Both the position numbers and the translations under genes were made by a program. A stretch of 20,739 nucleotides of DNA, from contig JAGWDQ010000134.1 in the NCBI GenBank assembly GCA_018260615.1, positions 1-20,739 on the forward strand, read 5' to 3'. Below the pieces are notes generated by a model. The model did no database searches. It saw nothing but the letters and a program-made list of their open reading frames with translations, and was not told the DNA's origin. Every line of letters starts with the position of its first letter. Position 1 is the stretch's first letter. Below, piece by piece: positions 4,660 to 20,670 of this stretch. The DNA comes from Candidatus Altarchaeum sp. Lineage in GTDB: Archaea > Altiarchaeota > Altiarchaeia > Altiarchaeales > Altiarchaeaceae.

Positions 4660-7600
4660 ATGTCTAAAAATTTATCAAAAACAGGAGCGGTATTTTTTGT
4701 GGCAATAACCATTATATTATTGTTAATTTACGGAAATCCATACGCTCCGCCAGTTATTGAACAGGGCAATTTAAAATTAACCCTTGCCAAAGAACTTCCG
4801 GAGCCGTATGCATATTTATACAATAAAGACAAGAAAATCCTGACAATTAGTCCCTGGCAGGCATTAATAAAATACGATGGAAAAGCAAGAGTAATTTATC
4901 TTTATGGAAGCAATGCTACATGGTTTAACGGCAGTGATGACAAGCAAATTAATGTTGAAAATAATAAAATAATTATTAAATATTCAAACCCGTCAAAAGA
5001 CCCGAGCGAAGTAAGAATTACATTTTCTCTTGATGAAGAAAAATTAAATTATAAGGTTGAAGGTAATTTTTCCGATCCGGAAAAAATTGAAGCATTTTCC
5101 TGCGGAGTTCTTGGTAAAGGAAGTTACGGAGAAGATTATGAAAGGATTTTGACCCCTTCTGATGATGTTATAGAAAATAAAGAAAACAAATCATTCACAT
5201 TCATTAAAGGTTTTCAAATTCCTGAGATAAATAAAAATTATAATTTAATGATTTCAAATTCCACAATGCTTAATATAAGTGGAAAATTTATTAAAATAGA
5301 AATCTCAAATCCTCCACATGCTCATGTTTCCAGATTTTATGTTAATCCAAACGAAACATTAACAATTAAAGTTCAGGAACCGATTGAATTAAATTTAACA
5401 GATAAGAGCAATTTAAAATTAACCCTTGCCAAAGAACTTCCGGAGCCGTATGCATATTTATACAATAAAGACAAGAAAATCCTGACAATTAGTCCCTGGC
5501 AGGCATTAATAAAATACGATGGAAAAGCAAGAGTAATTTATCTTTATGGAAGCAATGCTACATGGTTTAACGGCAGTGATGACAAGCAAATTAATGTTGA
5601 AAATAATAAAATAATTATTAAATATTCAAACCCGTCAAAAGACCCGAGCGAAGTAAGAATTACATTTTCTCTTGATGAAGAAAAATTAAATTATAAGGTT
5701 GAAGGTAATTTTTCCGATCCGGAAAAAATTGAAGCATTTTCCTGCGGAGTTCTTGGTAAAGGAAGTTACGGAGAAGATTATGAAAGGATTTTGACCCCTT
5801 CTGATGATGTTATAGAAAATAAAGAAAACAAATCATTCACATTCATTAAAGGTTTTCAAATTCCTGAGATAAATAAAAATTATAATTTAATGATTTCAAA
5901 TTCCACAATGCTTAATATAAGTGGAAAATTTATTAAAATAGAAATCTCAAATCCTCCACATGCTCATGTTTCCAGATTTTATGTTAATCCAAACGAAACA
6001 TTAACAATTAAAGTTCAGGAACCGATTGAATTAAATTTAACAGATAAGAGCAATTTAAAATTAACCCTTGCCAAAGAACTTCCGGAGCCGTATGCATATT
6101 TATACAATAAAGACAAGAAAATCCTGACAATTAGTCCCTGGCAGGCATTAATAAAATACGATGGAAAAGCAAGAGTAATTTATCTTTATGGAAGCAATGC
6201 TACATGGTTTAACGGCAGTGATGACAAGCAAATTAATGTTGAAAATAATAAAATAATTATTAAATATTCAAACCCGTCAAAAGACCCGAGCGAAGTAAGA
6301 ATTACATTTTCTCTTGATGAAGAAAAATTAAATTATAAGGTTGAAGGTAATTTTTCCGATCCGGAAAAAATTGAAGCATTTTCCTGCGGAGTTCTTGGTA
6401 AAGGAAGTTACGGAGAAGATTATGAAAGGATTTTGACCCCTTCTGATGATGTTATAGAAAATAAAGAAAACAAATCATTCACATTCATTAAAGGTTTTCA
6501 AATTCCTGAGATAAATAAAAATTATAATTTAATGATTTCAAATTCCACAATGCTTAATATAAGTGGAAAATTTATTAAAATAGAAATCTCAAATCCTCCA
6601 CATGCTCATGTTTCCAGATTTTATGTTAATCCAAACGAAACATTAACAATTAAAGTTCAGGAACCGATTGAATTAAATTTAACAGATAAGAGCAATTTAA
6701 AATTAACCCTTGCCAAAGAACTTCCGGAGCCGTATGCATATTTATACAATAAAGACAAGAAAATCCTGACAATTAGTCCCTGGCAGGCATTAATAAAATA
6801 CGATGGAAAAGCAAGAGTAATTTATCTTTATGGAAGCAATGCTACATGGTTTAACGGCAGTGATGACAAGCAAATTAATGTTGAAAATAATAAAATAATT
6901 ATTAAATATTCAAACCCGTCAAAAGACCCGAGCGAAGTAAGAATTACATTTTCTCTTGATGAAGAAAAATTAAATTATAAGGTTGAAGGTAATTTTTCCG
7001 ATCCGGAAAAAATTGAAGCATTTTCCTGCGGAGTTCTTGGTAAAGGAAGTTACGGAGAAGATTATGAAAGGATTTTGACCCCTTCTGATGATGTTATAGA
7101 AAATAAAGAAAACAAATCATTCACATTCATTAAAGGTTTTCAAATTCCTGAGATAAATAAAAATTATAATTTAATGATTTCAAATTCCACAATGCTTAAT
7201 ATAAGTGGAAAATTTATTAAAATAGAAATCTCAAATCCTCCACATGCTCATGTTTCCAGATTTTATGTTAATCCAAACGAAACATTAACAATTAAAGTTC
7301 AGGAACCGATTGAATTAAATTTAACAGATAAGAGCAATTTAAAATTAACCCTTGCCAAAGAACTTCCGGAGCCGTATGCATATTTATACAATAAAGACAA
7401 GAAAATCCTGACAATTAGTCCCTGGCAGGCATTAATAAAATACGATGGAAAAGCAAGAGTAATTTATCTTTATGGAAGCAATGCTACATGGTTTAACGGC
7501 AGTGATGACAAGCAAATTAATGTTGAAAATAATAAAATAATTATTAAATATTCAAACCCGTCAAAAGACCCGAGCGAAGTAAGAATTACATTTTCTCTTG

Positions 7601-8676
7601 ATGAAGAAAAATTAAATTATAAGGTTGAAGGTAATTTTTCCGATCCGGAAAAAATTGAAGCATTTTCCTGCGGAGTTCTTGGTAAAGGAAGTTACGGAGA
7701 AGATTATGAAAGGATTTTGACCCCTTCTGATGATGTTATAGAAAATAAAGAAAACAAATCATTCACATTCATTAAAGGTTTTCAAATTCCTGAGATAAAT
7801 AAAAATTATAATTTAATGATTTCAAATTCCACAATGCTTAATATAAGTGGAAAATTTATTAAAATAGAAATCTCAAATCCTCCACATGCTCATGTTTCCA
7901 GATTTTATGTTAATCCAAACGAAACATTAACAATTAAAGTTCAGGAACCGATAGAGTTAAATTTAACCCAAACCTATCCGATAACCGTCTCAACATCAAA
8001 AAAAATTTGGGATGGAATTCACATTTATAAAAACGGAACCAAAATTTTATCCCTGTCTACATGGGAAGCAATATTTAAACATGACGGAAGAACACAAAGA
8101 TTACTTTCCAGCTTAAAGTATGATGAAGATTATCCGAACAAATTACTCTTTAACTACAACAATTCGGCAAAAATAACCAAAATTTCAGAAATAAAACAAA
8201 ACAACAAAACAACCGGCTATGAAATGAATGTTTCATGGGTCAATGAAAGCAGAGATGTTCAGGAGATCGGATTTAGCATAAAAATCTATGAAAACAAAAG
8301 TTATGCGGAAATCAAATACATTTACAGAACAAAAAACGCTTATGTTAATTTAGAACCATTATCCTACGGAATATCATTTGATAAAAACAAATTTACATAT
8401 ATAAAGGTCGTAAAAAACAGCGAAATAACAGGAAACATAAAAAGAAGTCCTGTAGAAAATGAAAAGAAGGGCTATCTGAATTTTGCAGGATGCGAACAGG
8501 GAAAATGCGATAAAATAATAGCGGATCAGTGGTTCATAGATAAAGGAAACAAGAATTATGAAAAAGCCGTTGAAATTAAAGGTAATTTCAGCAGAATAGG
8601 GCATTATTTTACCTATAATCTTGTCCGGTTTTATATGGATGACTTTAAAGAGCCGTTAAAAATATATGTTGATTGA
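4660..8676 (+). CDS. Membrane-anchored or secreted surface protein with five identical 214-aa domains plus one diverged C-terminal domain
   Basis: 1338 aa. N-terminal basic + hydrophobic segment (KTGAVFFVAITIILLLIYG), beta-rich repeats, 8 N-x-S/T sequons per repeat. Confidence 0.8.
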   Translation: MSKNLSKTGAVFFVAITIILLLIYGNPYAPPVIEQGNLKLTLAKELPEPYAYLYNKDKKILTISPWQALIKYDGKARVIYLYGSNATWFNGSDDKQINVENNKIIIKYSNPSKDPSEVRITFSLDEEKLNYKVEGNFSDPEKIEAFSCGVLGKGSYGEDYERILTPSDDVIENKENKSFTFIKGFQIPEINKNYNLMISNSTMLNISGKFIKIEISNPPHAHVSRFYVNPNETLTIKVQEPIELNLTDKSNLKLTLAKELPEPYAYLYNKDKKILTISPWQALIKYDGKARVIYLYGSNATWFNGSDDKQINVENNKIIIKYSNPSKDPSEVRITFSLDEEKLNYKVEGNFSDPEKIEAFSCGVLGKGSYGEDYERILTPSDDVIENKENKSFTFIKGFQIPEINKNYNLMISNSTMLNISGKFIKIEISNPPHAHVSRFYVNPNETLTIKVQEPIELNLTDKSNLKLTLAKELPEPYAYLYNKDKKILTISPWQALIKYDGKARVIYLYGSNATWFNGSDDKQINVENNKIIIKYSNPSKDPSEVRITFSLDEEKLNYKVEGNFSDPEKIEAFSCGVLGKGSYGEDYERILTPSDDVIENKENKSFTFIKGFQIPEINKNYNLMISNSTMLNISGKFIKIEISNPPHAHVSRFYVNPNETLTIKVQEPIELNLTDKSNLKLTLAKELPEPYAYLYNKDKKILTISPWQALIKYDGKARVIYLYGSNATWFNGSDDKQINVENNKIIIKYSNPSKDPSEVRITFSLDEEKLNYKVEGNFSDPEKIEAFSCGVLGKGSYGEDYERILTPSDDVIENKENKSFTFIKGFQIPEINKNYNLMISNSTMLNISGKFIKIEISNPPHAHVSRFYVNPNETLTIKVQEPIELNLTDKSNLKLTLAKELPEPYAYLYNKDKKILTISPWQALIKYDGKARVIYLYGSNATWFNGSDDKQINVENNKIIIKYSNPSKDPSEVRITFSLDEEKLNYKVEGNFSDPEKIEAFSCGVLGKGSYGEDYERILTPSDDVIENKENKSFTFIKGFQIPEINKNYNLMISNSTMLNISGKFIKIEISNPPHAHVSRFYVNPNETLTIKVQEPIELNLTQTYPITVSTSKKIWDGIHIYKNGTKILSLSTWEAIFKHDGRTQRLLSSLKYDEDYPNKLLFNYNNSAKITKISEIKQNNKTTGYEMNVSWVNESRDVQEIGFSIKIYENKSYAEIKYIYRTKNAYVNLEPLSYGISFDKNKFTYIKVVKNSEITGNIKRSPVENEKKGYLNFAGCEQGKCDKIIADQWFIDKGNKNYEKAVEIKGNFSRIGHYFTYNLVRFYMDDFKEPLKIYVD
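4766..7952 (+). repeat. Intragenic tandem repeat, 642-bp unit, about 4.96 copies
   Basis: The anchor gcaatttaaaattaacccttgcc starts at 4766, 5408, 6050, 6692 and 7334 (period 642). Translated units are identical and DNA spot checks showed no differences. Identity ends at 7952. Confidence 0.95.
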
Positions 8677-9484: not shown

Positions 9485-9515
9485 AATCTTTAAAAATCTG
9501 TAAGATTTTTAAATA
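9485..9515. repeat. 31-bp dispersed palindromic repeat, copy 1
   Basis: aatctttaaaaatctgtaagatttttaaata, identical to 18051-18081. Contains the perfect 11-bp inverted repeat tttaaaaatct-gta-agatttttaaa. Confidence 0.85.
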
Positions 9516-16432: not shown

Positions 16433-17842
16433 ATGGCTGAAAAAAATAACGATGTAGAAATTACATTATTCGGAGAAGAAGAAAATAAAAACATACTTGA
16501 AAAAATACTGAAAAGCAAGGCAAAGATAAAATTTAAAAATTTCAAGTTACTTGCCGATGATGCGGAAATTATATTTCCTTCGTTTCATGCACAAAAGGCA
16601 TTACTTGAAAAATCAACAGGTAAAGAAAAGGCAATTCTTGAACGGCTGATGAAAGGCGGTGGGGCAATAACGATTGAGGACTTTGAAGCAAGCGGCGAAG
16701 AATTTGAAATAACCCTTCCTTCGTTTGTTCAGCAGATTATAACCGCAGGATTTGGCGGAGGAAGAGGAATGCAGGGTGCAGAGTCAGTAAGGGCAATTGA
16801 AAGATTACTTGAATTTAAATTTGATATTTCAAAAATTACTGAAAAATATCCGATGCAGATATCGGAGGTAACATTGGGAGCAACGAGAACAGAAGGAGGA
16901 AGCCGGGATACGAGTGTAAAAATTGGCGGACAAAAGACAATGCCGTTTTATTTCTTTGAAAGTTCTTCAGGCAATAAGCCGGTTATTTCCAATGATGTAT
17001 TTGACATACCTGAGGGAGTTCCAAGAGTTGTGAAAGAGTGTTTTAAAATAGGTGATAAGACAGATAAAGAAATAATGGCAGATGCCGGAGAATGGGCAAA
17101 ATTCAGAGTTGAAAAATCCAATGCAAAGGTAGTGACTATTCATTTAATCAGCACAGATCCGAATGTTAAAGATGCAAGTGTTCAGGATGCGATGAAAACA
17201 GTTGCCCATATATTGCAGTCGGTTAAAGTTCCTATTGTTGTCGGCGGTTCGGGAAATCCTGTAAAAGACCCTTTAATATTTAAAGAAGCGGCAGAGATGT
17301 TTGCCGGAGAACGACTATTATTTTCAACAATTGCCGGTGATATGGAATATGAAGATGTTGTTAAAGCATGTACCAGATACGGTCACAACCTTGGAACGCT
17401 TGTTTCAATGAATCCTGATGATATGAGGCGTCTGAACGGCGGCATATTAAAGGCGGGACTGCCAAGAAACCAGTTAACAATGGATCCGTTTACAGCAGGA
17501 GTTGGTTACGGAATAGAATATTCAATTTCTTCACTGGAAAGATGTCGTCTGGCTGGATTATTGGGCGAGGAATCGCTCGCGGTTCCGATAATATCTGCAA
17601 CTTCAAATGTATGGGCGGCGAGAGAGGCGTGGAAGAAAAATGATGAATGGGGACCAAGAGAACTAAGAGGTCCATTATATGAGTCAGCAACCGGACTTGT
17701 AGCGTTGTTGTGCGGAGCGGACATATTTTATTCATTAGATGTGCTTGCTATTGAATTGTTAAACAAAATCATTGATTCCACTCACGAATTAAAAGAAGAA
17801 ATGGATAAGAAAAGTAACTATCTTTCATGGATTACTGCGTAA
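16433..17842 (+). CDS. cdhD: Acetyl-CoA decarbonylase/synthase delta subunit (small subunit of corrinoid Fe-S protein) with an N-terminal extension of about 110 aa
   Basis: LGATRTEGGSR..VKIGGQKTMPFY, VTIHLISTDP, PIVVGGSGNPVKDP, MDPFTAGVGYGIEYS, ERCRLAGL.G and final WI are CdhD/AcsD signatures. Confidence 0.95.
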   Translation: MAEKNNDVEITLFGEEENKNILEKILKSKAKIKFKNFKLLADDAEIIFPSFHAQKALLEKSTGKEKAILERLMKGGGAITIEDFEASGEEFEITLPSFVQQIITAGFGGGRGMQGAESVRAIERLLEFKFDISKITEKYPMQISEVTLGATRTEGGSRDTSVKIGGQKTMPFYFFESSSGNKPVISNDVFDIPEGVPRVVKECFKIGDKTDKEIMADAGEWAKFRVEKSNAKVVTIHLISTDPNVKDASVQDAMKTVAHILQSVKVPIVVGGSGNPVKDPLIFKEAAEMFAGERLLFSTIAGDMEYEDVVKACTRYGHNLGTLVSMNPDDMRRLNGGILKAGLPRNQLTMDPFTAGVGYGIEYSISSLERCRLAGLLGEESLAVPIISATSNVWAAREAWKKNDEWGPRELRGPLYESATGLVALLCGADIFYSLDVLAIELLNKIIDSTHELKEEMDKKSNYLSWITA

Positions 17843-17880
17843 GACATTTAAAAATTTAAAATTTAAAAAATCTACAAAAA

Positions 17881-18017
17881 TTGACCAAAGAAGGGAGTGA
17901 AGTCGTGACATTTTGTCACGGGTTGAAGTTGTTATCTCATGATAAAAAATGAGGGAGACAAATTGTGCAAAGACAGAAAGCATATTTAGAATTATAATGT
18001 CAATTCCTTCAAATAAA
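17881..18017 (+). pseudogene. Internal fragment of a third Bro-N paralogue with a frameshift in an A6 run
   Basis: LTKEGSEVVTFCHGLKLLSHDKK, then in the shifted frame MRETNCAKTESIFRIIMSIPSNK, matching the downstream genes' KYTTDCANTENIFRIIQSIPSPK. One extra A at 17944-17949 would join the two frames. Confidence 0.8.
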
Positions 18018-18030
18018 GATTGTGAAATAC

Positions 18031-18081
18031 TGAAAATCTATAGGATTTTCAATCTTTAAAAATCTGTAAGATTTTTAAATA
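18031..18081. repeat. 31-bp palindromic repeat copy 2, preceded by a variant palindrome
   Basis: 18051-18081 equals 9485-9515. tgaaaatc-tatag-gattttca at 18031-18051 is a second, related inverted repeat. Confidence 0.85.
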
Positions 18082-18163
18082 AATTTAAACCGTAAAATTT
18101 TAGGAGCAATTTCCAAAACAAATTCACTTTAAGTCAAAGGCATATAAATTTATTACAATTAAA

Positions 18164-19039
18164 ATGGAATCAGATAACGCATTAGTTGTATTTCAGGGAA
18201 ATGGCATCAGAAGAAGATGGTATAACGAACAATGGCATTTTGTAATTGTAGATGTTGTTGAGATTTTAACTAATTCGTTACAACCCGAAGGGTATATTAA
18301 AGATATGCGGCGGCGAGACCCTGAACTTTCTAAAGGGTGGGGGCAAATTGCCACCCCCCTTTTAATACAAACTAAAGGTGGACCCCAGAAAATAAATTGT
18401 GCCAGTACAGAAGGAATTTTTCGTATTATACAGTCAATTCCTTCCCCTAAAGCAGAACCTTTTAAGAGATGGCTTGCCAAAGTCGGTTACGAGCGAATAC
18501 AGGAAATAGAAAACCCTGAAATTGCACAGGAACGGGCAAAGGAATACTATGAACTTAAAGGTTATCCTAAGGACTGGATTGATAAACGGCTCAGGGGAAT
18601 CGCCATCAGGCAAGGATTAACAGACGAATGGAAACAGAGAGGGATTGAAGAGAAAAAGGAATATGCAATTCTCACAAATGAAATTTCAAAGGCAACATTT
18701 GGCGTATCAATCAAAAACCATAAAGAAATAAAAGGTCTTGACCCGAAGTTTAAAAACCAGAATTTACGAGACCACATGACGGATTTGGAATTAATTTTCA
18801 CAATGCTCGGCGAGGCATCAACAACAGAAATCGCAAGAAGTAAAGATGCACAAGGTTTTAATGAAAATATGAATGCTGCAAGAAAAGGCGGCGGAATTGC
18901 AGGAAATGCGAGACAGGAATTAGAATACGAATCAGGAAGGAAAGTTGTAAGTAGTGAAAATTATTTGGAAATTACAGGTAAAGTTCATAAAATTAAGAAA
19001 TTAGAGGACAAAAAATCAGAAAAGAAAACCGGCAAATAA
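18164..19039 (+). CDS. Bro-N domain protein (phage antirepressor-like DNA-binding protein), copy 1
   Basis: IRRRWYNEQWHFVIVDVVEIL, CASTEGIFRIIQSIPSPKAEPFKRWLAKVGYERI, NLRDHMTDLELIFTMLGEASTTEI. Confidence 0.85.
   Translation: MESDNALVVFQGNGIRRRWYNEQWHFVIVDVVEILTNSLQPEGYIKDMRRRDPELSKGWGQIATPLLIQTKGGPQKINCASTEGIFRIIQSIPSPKAEPFKRWLAKVGYERIQEIENPEIAQERAKEYYELKGYPKDWIDKRLRGIAIRQGLTDEWKQRGIEEKKEYAILTNEISKATFGVSIKNHKEIKGLDPKFKNQNLRDHMTDLELIFTMLGEASTTEIARSKDAQGFNENMNAARKGGGIAGNARQELEYESGRKVVSSENYLEITGKVHKIKKLEDKKSEKKTGK
18425..18839 (+). repeat. 415-bp identical block shared by the two Bro-N genes (partner 19309-19723)
   Basis: Read base by base from attatacagtcaattcc to gaaatcgcaagaa; no differences found. 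Offset 884 bp. Confidence 0.9.
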
Positions 19040-19044
19040 TTAAA

Positions 19045-19926
19045 ATGGAATCGGATAAAGCATTAGTTGTATTTCAGGGAAAGAAAATCAGAAGGGAGTG
19101 GTATAATAATGAATGGTACTTTTCAGTAGTTGATGTTATTGAAGTTTTAATTGACAGCCAAAGACCAAGGAAGTATTGGTCAGATTTAAAAGTCAATCTT
19201 CTGAATGAGGGTTTTGAGTTGTCCGATAAAATCGGACAACTGAAGTTGCTATCATCAGACGGTAAAAAATACACAACAGATTGTGCAAATACTGAAAATA
19301 TATTTAGGATTATACAGTCAATTCCTTCCCCTAAAGCAGAACCTTTTAAGAGATGGCTTGCCAAAGTCGGTTACGAGCGAATACAGGAAATAGAAAACCC
19401 TGAAATTGCACAGGAACGGGCAAAGGAATACTATGAACTTAAAGGTTATCCTAAGGACTGGATTGATAAACGGCTCAGGGGAATCGCCATCAGGCAAGGA
19501 TTAACAGACGAATGGAAACAGAGAGGGATTGAAGAGAAAAAGGAATATGCAATTCTCACAAATGAAATTTCAAAGGCAACATTTGGCGTATCAATCAAAA
19601 ACCATAAAGAAATAAAAGGTCTTGACCCGAAGTTTAAAAACCAGAATTTACGAGACCACATGACGGATTTGGAATTAATTTTCACAATGCTCGGCGAGGC
19701 ATCAACAACAGAAATCGCAAGAAACAGAGATGCGCAGGGGTTTCCTGAGAACCAGCGAGCTGCAAGAGAAGGAGGTGAAGTTGCAGGAATAGCAAGACAG
19801 GATCTTGAAAAAAAAACCGGTAAAAAGGTCATAAGCAAAGATAATTATCTGGAGATTAGAGGAAATGCGGAGAAATTATTGACTAATTCAAAAACCAAAA
19901 GAACTGATAAAACAAAACATCAATAG
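19045..19926 (+). CDS. Bro-N domain protein, copy 2
   Basis: IRREWYNNEWYFSVVDVIEVL, RKYWSDLK, QLKLLSSDGKKYTTDCANTENIFRIIQSIPSPKAEPF; same central core as copy 1. Confidence 0.85.
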   Translation: MESDKALVVFQGKKIRREWYNNEWYFSVVDVIEVLIDSQRPRKYWSDLKVNLLNEGFELSDKIGQLKLLSSDGKKYTTDCANTENIFRIIQSIPSPKAEPFKRWLAKVGYERIQEIENPEIAQERAKEYYELKGYPKDWIDKRLRGIAIRQGLTDEWKQRGIEEKKEYAILTNEISKATFGVSIKNHKEIKGLDPKFKNQNLRDHMTDLELIFTMLGEASTTEIARNRDAQGFPENQRAAREGGEVAGIARQDLEKKTGKKVISKDNYLEIRGNAEKLLTNSKTKRTDKTKHQ

Positions 19927-20030
19927 AAATTTAAATTTCAACATCATAAAATTTAACCTTTAAAAATAAACAAGGATAACATGGAACAAAGAGATAAATT
20001 TATACTTTACGAACATTAATTAATAATAAA

Positions 20031-20252
20031 ATGGAAACCGGAGAAATATTAAAAAAGGATTCTGAATGGCTATCTGAGAATATGGCAAAACTGCAGGAAA
20101 GTTATGAAGGCAAGTGGATTGCGATAGTAAATAAAAAGATAATTGCGTTTGGAAAAAACTTTGGAGAGGCATTTGACCTGGCAAAGAAGAAATTCCCAAA
20201 TATAAATCCGCTTATTGATTATGTTCCAAAAAAAGAGGCACTGATACTATAA
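20031..20252 (+). CDS. DUF5678-family small protein
   Basis: 73 aa, WLSENMAKLQESYEGKWIAIVNKKIIAFGKNFGEAFDLAKKKFP..PLIDYVP fits the recalled family pattern (Y.GKWIA...G...EA...A). Confidence 0.75.
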   Translation: METGEILKKDSEWLSENMAKLQESYEGKWIAIVNKKIIAFGKNFGEAFDLAKKKFPNINPLIDYVPKKEALIL

Positions 20253-20256
20253 AAAT

Positions 20257-20670
20257 ATGGAAACCTCAAAATACGAATTAGAATATTCCGAAAATTTCGG
20301 TAAAATTTTAAGACCGAAGGTCCTGGCAAGAATTATAAATCCCCTTACCGGTGACTTTATTGATGTTCGTTGTTATGTTGACACCGGAGCAGATATATCT
20401 CTCTTGCCACAGTCAGCCGGAAAAAGAATTAATCTGGATGTAGAATGCGGCAAGCGGGCGGTATTCCGAGGCATAAGCCAGAAAAAAGAATGCTCAGTAG
20501 AAGCATATATTCATGAAGTCAAAATCAGATTGTGTGAACATGAATTTGAATCCCTAATGGCATTTTCACCTGTTGAGGATTTGCCACCATTAGTTGGAAG
20601 ATTAAAAGCACTGGATTATTTTGAGATATGTCTAAACGGAAAAGAAATAAAATTTAAATATTTAATATAA
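20257..20670 (+). CDS. Retropepsin-like (clan AA) aspartyl protease
   Basis: Catalytic VDTGA motif, RPKVLARI upstream, PPLVGRL corresponding to the ILGR motif; 137-aa single domain. Starts 4 bp after the DUF5678 stop. Confidence 0.85.
   Translation: METSKYELEYSENFGKILRPKVLARIINPLTGDFIDVRCYVDTGADISLLPQSAGKRINLDVECGKRAVFRGISQKKECSVEAYIHEVKIRLCEHEFESLMAFSPVEDLPPLVGRLKALDYFEICLNGKEIKFKYLI

Follow-up and report, generated by a model that had tools for sequence, protein, structure and literature searches.

A fixed-place coding palindrome with covarying arms in Bro-N genes

We analysed a 20.7-kb contig (C134, here called the window and taken at its full length) of a Candidatus Altarchaeum assembly (2.2 Mb, 32% GC, 87% complete), in which two full-length genes with a Bro-N domain, copy 1 and copy 2, and the decayed relic of a third each carry an inverted repeat inside the coding sequence of that domain. 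We found that this palindrome is a two-fold symmetric DNA element that keeps one position in the coding sequences of a widespread Bro-N/DinD-like family, and that its arms evolve in concert, overriding both codon choice and amino-acid identity. Among the explanations weighed below, we favour that of a DNA element under selection, with template switching keeping its arms alike. No published description of a Bro-N coding palindrome was found in the literature on Bro-N, dinD, RhuM/DinD and BRO proteins. Coding sequence is usually seen as shaped by the protein and by codon usage, whereas here up to nine codons are set by the symmetry of the DNA, which amounts to a second, hidden layer of information across a superfamily of archaea, bacteria and viruses whose genes are common in defence islands.

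Three palindromes at one place in the Bro-N domain

All three inverted repeats that the first-pass annotation had picked out in the two Bro-N copies and the relic were present, as seen in the sequence and in repeat scans (Table 1). In copy 2 the palindrome encodes residues 58-66 and is centred on a19229, the second base of the Lys62 codon. The repeat of copy 1, first described as a bulged one at 18335-18356, is real but is better read as a longer palindrome with two mismatches; its axis is the first base of the Ile62 codon, and residue 62 lies 18 residues past the invariant Tyr44. The three axes had been placed on an equivalent codon. This held for copy 2 and the relic, whose DNA aligns here without gaps and whose axes both fall on the middle base of the equivalent codon, equally far from conserved downstream bases; in copy 1 the axis also falls in the codon of residue 62, but on its first base, with the frame shifted by one. 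Relatives of the copy 1 subtype (L034, L040 and C68) are palindromic at the same spot. The three sequences had further been called unrelated, which is true only in part, as copy 2 and the relic have conserved outer arms in common (encoding E/Q-L and Q-L). The relic's 17-mer palindrome has further copies in C80, an intact paralogue, and in another relic (C44:47394).

The repeat of copy 2 is the sole inverted repeat of the window with 11-bp arms that has several G/C in the arms (5/11), the remaining two being AT-only and intergenic. As single-stranded DNA (ssDNA), the palindrome of copy 2 was predicted to fold with -11.3 kcal/mol (z -6.4 against shuffles) and that of copy 1 with -10.7 kcal/mol (z -2.35), while the relic gave a z of -4.5, and the folds spanned -7.4 to -11.3 kcal/mol. 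An intrinsic terminator was ruled out, as there is no T-run 3′ of the palindrome.

Concerted evolution of the arms across the family

Homologues were sampled from 80 genomic loci (archaea and many bacterial phyla, with proteins 57-76% identical) and from 80 viral-contig loci. All Bro-N paralogues of the source genome were found to carry their own palindrome at this place, with arms of 7-15 bp. In an alignment of 84 genes, no column other than the axis codon had a mean palindrome score of 3 or more; the axis codon reached 8.2, compared with an overall mean of 1.16 (standard deviation (SD) of the column means, 0.59). Among 127 non-redundant genes from archaea, bacteria and viral contigs, 10.07 of the 12 scored positions, which lie 2-13 nt from the axis, formed Watson-Crick pairs on average, and at least 8 of the 12 were paired in every one of the 127.

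Chance, or a by-product of the amino-acid sequence and codon usage, is the simplest explanation for such pairing, and the peptide does carry part of the symmetry, since resampling of synonymous codons left 6.22 of the 12 positions paired, compared with 3.04 (SD 1.55) at other centres of the same genes. However, the observed pairing was above the gene's own resampled mean in 127 of 127 genes, and 9 or more pairs were reached at only 0.07% of the other centres. Moreover, synonymous sites switched on both sides together, and the encoded peptides differ completely between palindrome classes. Resampling and covariation thus refute this explanation.

Covariation was scored in an ungapped 35-column alignment of 117 distinct sequences. 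Paired cells made up 85.8% in the real alignment and 60.5% in shuffles, and changes on both sides had occurred at 11 of the 12 pairs. The covariation score was 0.649, compared with 0.203 in shuffles (0.649 was reached in 0 of 500) and 0.03-0.12 when the partners were slid. The first-pass annotation had proposed both comparisons, with synonymous shuffles and between the arms, and had suggested that in this part of the Bro-N domain the symmetry and not the sequence is conserved; the column scores, the large excess over synonymous shuffles and the covariation bear this out across the family.

Given that the arms stand in codon register, amino acids change in complementary pairs, namely S with G or R, Y or H with V, D with I, T with C, and P with W. 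At 11 nt from the axis, the third base of a Glu/Gln codon is paired with the first base of a Leu codon, and both sites are synonymous. Of the 117 sequences, 66 have A-T here, 51 have G-C and none lacks the pair, which represents synonymous double changes with no intermediates. At 10 nt from the axis T-A and C-G both occur, while the symmetric positions of the inner arm keep their identity within a specificity class. Relative to the reading frame, the axis stands at the second codon base in the main type, at the first in the copy-1 type and at a codon boundary in the DinD type, and this difference in register between subtypes excludes an artefact of codon symmetry. In most cases the arms are complementary up to 2 nt from the axis, so that the loop consists of 3 nt of A/T. 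Loop inversion was considered, as the central triplets AAA/TTT and AAT/ATT are reverse complements of which both forms are found within classes, but all stepwise intermediates occur and the idea was rejected.

Stem covariation in a transcribed region and a stable fold could also reflect an mRNA hairpin that controls translation, processing or transcript stability, and the mismatches speak to this. On the sense strand, G·T and A·C mismatches numbered 21 and 18 in the Bro-N subfamily and 7 and 22 in the DinD subfamily; most non-pairs were other mismatches, at positions of conflicting amino-acid constraints, and lasting mismatches stood only 13 nt from the axis and, in the S-P-I-W-V class, 6 nt from it. 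As there was no preference for G·T over A·C, the conserved object is DNA and not mRNA. In addition, the varying synonymous pair was G·U in 0 of 117 sequences, the loop has only 3 nt of A/T, and relics that look non-transcribed retain the palindrome. No Rfam family was found either, since a scan of 17700-20100 (E<=10) gave matches at chance level only, none near any gathering score. We therefore regard an mRNA hairpin as very improbable.

We further observed the element in related families. A distant Bro-N paralogue of the source genome, C124:19910-20761, is a true DinD (NF008573, 363 bits) and has a palindrome with 9-bp arms at the equivalent spot. E. coli K-12 dinD (L187:2761-3585) has one at nt 174-205, with 15-bp arms, one mismatch and an axis that overlaps GATC. 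As K-12 is a standard laboratory strain, the question of the element's function is directly testable there. Similarly, the best palindrome of the whole gene lies at this spot in about 60 of 71 metagenomic DinD relatives, with the outer arms conserved and the inner arms covarying. We count this deep conservation, at the same structural spot in the DinD subfamily, as an argument for function. The window genes resemble E. coli DinD in their Bro-N domain, in a C-terminal half weakly similar to DinD and in the palindrome, but by profile score they are not DinD equivalogs, since NF008573 matched their C-terminal halves alone, with 20.2 and 19.9 bits, below the cut-off of 242 bits.

Of the 11 strongest palindromes with G/C in the 2.2-Mb genome, 7 belong to Bro-N, RhuM or DUF1016 genes, intact or as relics. 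Strong in-frame palindromes are found in one RhuM gene (PF13310) and in four DUF1016/YhcG genes (PF17761 and PF06250) of the source genome (Table 1), and the DUF1016 genes have outer arms in common while their inner arms differ. DUF1016 and RhuM have been reported as enriched neighbours of inverting type I restriction-modification (R-M) specificity genes, in a study that leaves palindromes unmentioned (Milman et al. 2023, PMC9881135).

Palindromes were also found outside intact genes. Exact-core and strong-palindrome scans identified orphan relics at C44:17237 and C44:47402 that hold scarcely more than the palindrome and the codons just before it (the cassette described below). The former is heavily decayed yet has perfect 11-bp arms, and it belongs to a class that has no intact gene in the 87%-complete assembly. 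A pattern scan of the source genome for orphan palindromes returned known genes plus chance matches only. The region upstream of the L033 gene (L033:1200-1480) holds three orphan palindromes that differ in class, of which one is cognate, and L049 has a palindrome of a non-cognate class, with 11-bp arms, 56 nt upstream of its start codon in the promoter region. In annotation, coding palindromes and orphan relics of this kind should not be confused with terminators, miniature inverted-repeat transposable elements (MITEs) or repeats.

The element has the marks of a quasi-palindrome, a foldable inverted repeat with a short spacer whose arms change in concert. Quasi-palindromes are hotspots of template switching under the Ripley model, as shown in E. 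coli reporters (PMC7202029), and homogenisation and expansion of arms have been described in yeast promoters (PMC13100816). Like these hotspots, the Bro-N palindrome is short and imperfect, its spacer is tiny, and one arm can serve as template for its partner; concerted changes of the two arms, as observed, are predicted from this. In contrast to the laboratory or recent events at those sites, it is fixed in position and family-wide. Template switching, as the first-pass annotation had suggested, is supported by the lack of one-sided intermediates at synonymous pairs and of a G·T bias, but no de novo event was directly observed. The outer arm, with its free identity, its unbroken symmetry and its lack of intermediates, requires either intrastrand pairing or copying between the arms.

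Template switching of this kind is an established mutational mechanism (PMC7202029, PMC13100816), and it might be sufficient by itself, if copying outpaced point mutation in a tolerant linker, so that a neutral quasi-palindrome maintained itself and its symmetry drifted without function. Consistent with this, Watson-Crick symmetry is strict wherever the protein tolerates it, lasting mismatches are found only where amino acids conflict, there is no wobble bias, and the decayed relic C44:17237 retains its perfect arms. However, the palindrome is universally retained across very divergent subfamilies, despite rewritten arms and a shifted frame register, and the strong palindromes are concentrated in three families. 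Furthermore, a C·T mismatch of one class is kept stably in 11 diverse genes, and the pseudogene C99:24522-24809 has a new mismatch in its palindrome that is uncorrected, indicating that the copying drive is not overwhelming. Taken together, these observations are hard to square with a purely neutral drive, which we consider rather unlikely. Were the element nonetheless such a hairpin that maintains itself, there would be no clearer example in nature of template switching that steers the evolution of a protein.

Among published phenomena, the closest is that of the in-frame coding inverted repeats in functional mitochondrial genes of Nematomorpha (2019, PMC6649704). In both cases the two arms are coding, and nucleotide symmetry and protein function are kept together. 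The Nematomorpha repeats, however, are up to 284 bp long and numerous, and they occur in many genes of one organelle lineage and in conserved protein regions, whereas the Bro-N palindrome is single, measures 25-33 bp, stands at one homologous position across archaea, bacteria and viruses, and encodes the most variable segment of its protein. Its arms, unlike those of Nematomorpha, have been rewritten many times.

The predicted helix-palindrome cassette and the possible role of the element

We then considered what the palindrome encodes. An AlphaFold2 (AF2) model of residues 1-120 (predicted local distance difference test (pLDDT) 88) has a beta-hairpin, a helix at 28-35, a helix at 41-54 and a short turn at 59-62, and its C-terminal part has a beta-hairpin at 63-69/75-82 followed by helices. 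By analogy with the DNA-binding winged-helix-like domains that gave the best structural matches (see below), helix 41-54 is predicted to be the recognition helix and 63-82 the wing, with the palindrome (residues 58-66) encoding the link between them. DNA binding has been attributed to baculovirus BRO proteins (Zemskov 2000, as cited in PMC6537400). This literature agrees with the first-pass annotation in calling Bro-N a DNA-binding domain, although its basis comes from proteins other than the present subfamily.

The class of the inner arm was found to predict residues 40, 43, 46-48, 51, 52, 55 and 56 (mutual information over entropy (MI/H) 0.66-0.90), but not the equally variable residues 69-77 or the residues up to 38 (MI/H ~0.3), while residues 50, 53 and 54 vary freely inside palindrome classes. 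Residues 40, 43, 47 and 51 are spaced as on a single face of a helix. Accordingly, particular helix motifs go with particular half-sites: R-Y-W-S-D-L-K with GTACGA, K-Y-W-x-D-L-K with GTCCGA, and D-Y-W-[YF]-[KR] with GTCGACA. Between palindrome classes the peptides are wholly different and the symmetry stays. The predicted helix and the palindrome form a hypervariable cassette of ~80 nt (in copy 2, the predicted recognition helix, the turn and the link, encoded by the palindrome, to the first wing strand), which comes in discrete classes and is shuffled among otherwise similar gene backbones. The coupling of helix class and half-site would look like that of a specificity determinant and its target.

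Two further inferences were set aside. The information profile drops sharply at the 3′ edge of the palindrome, as a recombination hotspot might produce, but fast-evolving residues give low information whatever the linkage, so that no hotspot was inferred from it. Likewise, the fact that the paralogues all differ in class was not used to argue for orthogonality, as it would arise by chance in about 1 of 15 cases (a rough estimate).

Modelling also supports a symmetric Bro-N homodimer. The homodimer model scored 0.70, while the best of three controls scored 0.00; among proteins of known structure, 20 of 30 solved as one-chain pairs and 1 of 23 solved as single chains reached this mark, counts that hold only approximately for the Bro-N model because it was built on an alignment of our own. 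The runs agreed in at least 95% of contacts, with a partner pLDDT of at least 80. The modelled interface has two-fold symmetry (109:109, 112:112, 91:91), and residues 51 and 54-57, at the C-terminal end of the recognition helix, take part in it.

The position beside the recognition-helix codons, the coupling of classes and the predicted dimer together make a binding site for the gene's own product the most likely identity of the palindrome. We propose, tentatively and as a possibility that falls short of an even chance, that the palindrome is the site of the gene's own dimer, inherited with the helix as one ~80-nt cassette and with its arms homogenised by template switching. The homodimeric product would bind the palindrome as its putative cognate site, and with this site less than 60 nt from the codons of the specificity helix, protein and site would always be inherited together. 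Such an arrangement could give a mobile and often promoterless gene a promoter-independent means of recognising or throttling itself, e.g., by a transcription roadblock. Copying from arm to arm, by intrastrand template switching on a transient hairpin, would keep the symmetry strict, and a single copying event could rewrite both half-sites as well as the encoded peptide. We infer the rationale for a site inside the open reading frame (ORF) from the gene's frequent insertion without a promoter, as copy 1 and the start of copy 2 are only 5 nt apart and homologues occupy unrelated neighbourhoods. If this were true, it would be a new way to make a DNA-binding specificity and its target genetically inseparable, and to create orthogonal specificities in one step.

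Palindromic protein-binding sites within coding sequence are known from the parS site inside spo0J/parB and from the PurR roadblock operator inside purB, and parS lies within the gene of its own binding protein. These intragenic sites are conserved in sequence, stand outside the specificity codons and do not diversify in classes with the protein. In the Bro-N palindrome, binding by the own product is putative, and the identity of the site does diversify in classes with the protein.

Several observations weigh against a self-site. Outer-arm pairs are never asymmetric despite their free identity, which two independently read half-sites cannot explain; the pairs 10 and 11 nt from the axis take both base-pair identities within each class and remain perfectly symmetric. 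The site lies ~185 nt inside the ORF, away from the promoter, and a search with each gene's own 15-mer core identified a second cognate copy within 1.5 kb at only 2 of ~144 loci, both of which look like duplicated gene fragments. The coupling of helix and palindrome could be plain linkage in a block too divergent to recombine internally, the dimer is a modelled one, and DNA binding by this subfamily is putative. Structural comparison was suggestive: the best VIA-align matches were DNA-binding winged-helix-like domains, namely the N-terminal domain of DdrC (Z 8.1, rmsd 3.5, 93 aligned), Dachshund (6.9), Ski (5.8) and Mbp1 (4.6), but the top Z of 8.1 is within the range stated by VIA-align for unrelated best matches. 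Foldseek of the Bro-N model against the Protein Data Bank (PDB) gave no match at E<=0.001, and a profile search against PDB sequences gave flavivirus polymerases at a best E of 0.49, which is not meaningful. The rarity of second cognate copies ruled out a general promoter-proximal operator. The own operator suggested in the first-pass annotation thus has in its favour the segment after the predicted recognition helix, the tie between class and helix face and the predicted two-fold dimer, but it is at odds with the free yet symmetric outer arm and with the rare second copies.

Alternatively, the palindrome may act as a DNA hairpin or cruciform on single-stranded or underwound DNA, independently of sequence-specific binding by its own product. 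It would then serve as a cis signal for recombination or cassette exchange beside the specificity helix, stall replication or transcription, or be the target of a structure-specific enzyme. Pairing is conserved while the identity of the outer arm is free, there are no one-sided intermediates, the sequences fold stably as DNA, and mosaic paralogues are least similar around the palindrome. Moreover, the same kind of element is found in Bro-N/DinD, RhuM and DUF1016 genes, all of defence islands or mobile (with the type I R-M link of PMC9881135), and short orphans and relics lie near genes (C44:17237, C44:47402 and the three upstream of L033). However, no machinery was identified, and extrusion of arms of 11-15 bp needs strong underwinding. 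Nor does a hairpin role account for the location in the codons of the DNA-binding domain right after the recognition helix in every subfamily, or for class-specific residues on one helix face. We consider a functional hairpin unlikely. The attC sites of integrons offer a precedent in which structure is conserved over sequence, the function lies in folded ssDNA and gene cassettes are mobile. They are non-coding, longer and imperfect, with defined extrahelical bases, and require the integron integrase; none of these features was seen for the Bro-N palindrome.

The self-site proposal can be taken one step further, to a wider scheme that we think improbable as a whole. The helix and its site would share one cassette, and one hairpin-templated event would rewrite the half-sites and the peptide, giving mutually orthogonal pairs of protein and site. 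Such pairs would travel with a promoterless mobile defence gene that regulates or marks itself on landing, and the same would apply to DinD, RhuM and DUF1016/YhcG.

Genes of the locus and neighbouring features

The coordinates of the genes, palindromes and cassettes are given in Table 1. PF02498 (Bro-N) matched copy 1 with 41.0 bits and copy 2 with 44.1 bits, over profile positions 1/2-92 of 96 and above the gathering score of 25.6 bits. The PADLOC profile PDLC04920 (PDC-S13, candidate phage defence) matched copy 2 with an E of 1.2e-121 and copy 1 with 4.3e-112, over residues 1-284/285. By these matches, both copies are full-length members of PDC-S13, a candidate phage-defence family. The start codon of copy 2 lies 5 nt downstream of the stop codon of copy 1. 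In the relic, tblastn indicated a frameshift plus one TGA and one TAA, and its nearest paralogue is C80 of the same genome (88% identity over 43 nt, blastn).

Table 1. Coordinates of the Bro-N genes, palindromes and cassettes of the window, and of the RhuM/DUF1016 palindromes of the source genome.
Feature	Position	Strand	Description	Evidence
Copy 1, Bro-N gene, divergent N-terminal subtype	18164..19039	+	291 aa	ORF, Pfam, PADLOC
Copy 2, Bro-N gene	19045..19926	+	293 aa	ORF, Pfam, PADLOC
Third Bro-N gene, decayed relic	17860..18020 (approx.)	+	~residues 44-97	tblastn, DNA alignment, blastn
Palindrome of copy 2	19214..19244	.	14-bp arms, one mismatch; core 19217-19241 perfect 11+3+11	
Palindrome of copy 1	18332..18362	.	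15-bp arms, 2 mismatches; axis a18347	
Palindrome of relic	17904..17920	.	perfect 7+3+7	
Hypervariable 'specificity cassette' of copy 2 (predicted)	19162..19242	+	residues 40-66	AF2 model, information profile, class table, lowest paralogue identity
Equivalent cassette of copy 1 (predicted)	18281..18361	+	residues 40-66	alignments; placed by position from the copy 2 model
RhuM/DUF1016 palindromes	C4:7832; C91:3454; C140:16438; C147:14168; C142:13545			genome-wide palindrome scan

The source genome has at least 8 Bro-N paralogues or fragments. Copy 1 and copy 2 are 100% identical across ~440 nt in mid-gene (~18440-18880 and ~19320-19760), while their 5′ thirds differ, and the 3′ end of copy 1 is 100% identical to the paralogue C99a. 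These blocks of identity point to recent gene conversion among the paralogues. More generally, identity between paralogues is minimal (25-60%) around the palindrome and rises to 100% in other parts, a mosaic pattern as of gene conversion.

The closest homologues of the window Bro-N genes, together with the same CdhD neighbour, are found in Altiarchaeales assemblies, and at one Altiarchaeales locus (L019) the Bro-N gene is flanked by CdhD-like genes, as in the window. Elsewhere, homologues of the Bro-N/PDC-S13 genes occupy unrelated gene neighbourhoods. At two Woesearchaeota loci (L017:370-1443 and L020:192-1280), a RhuM gene lies directly upstream of the Bro-N/PDC-S13 gene. Just 3′ of the Bro-N genes of the window, at 20031-20670, a small DUF5678 gene is followed by a gene for a retropepsin-like aspartyl protease, in a compact two-gene module.

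Other repeats were also observed in the window. A perfect AT-rich palindrome of 25 nt, with 11-bp arms and a 3-nt spacer, occurs in identical form at two intergenic positions, 9489-9513, upstream of a RACo-like gene, and 18055-18079, between the Bro-N relic and copy 1; this duplicate may be a shared regulatory or termination signal. An ORF of 1338 aa at 4660-8676 contains a 642-nt tandem repeat, and the same hairpin with 8-bp arms recurs in each repeat unit, at 5067, 5709, 6351, 6993 and 7635.

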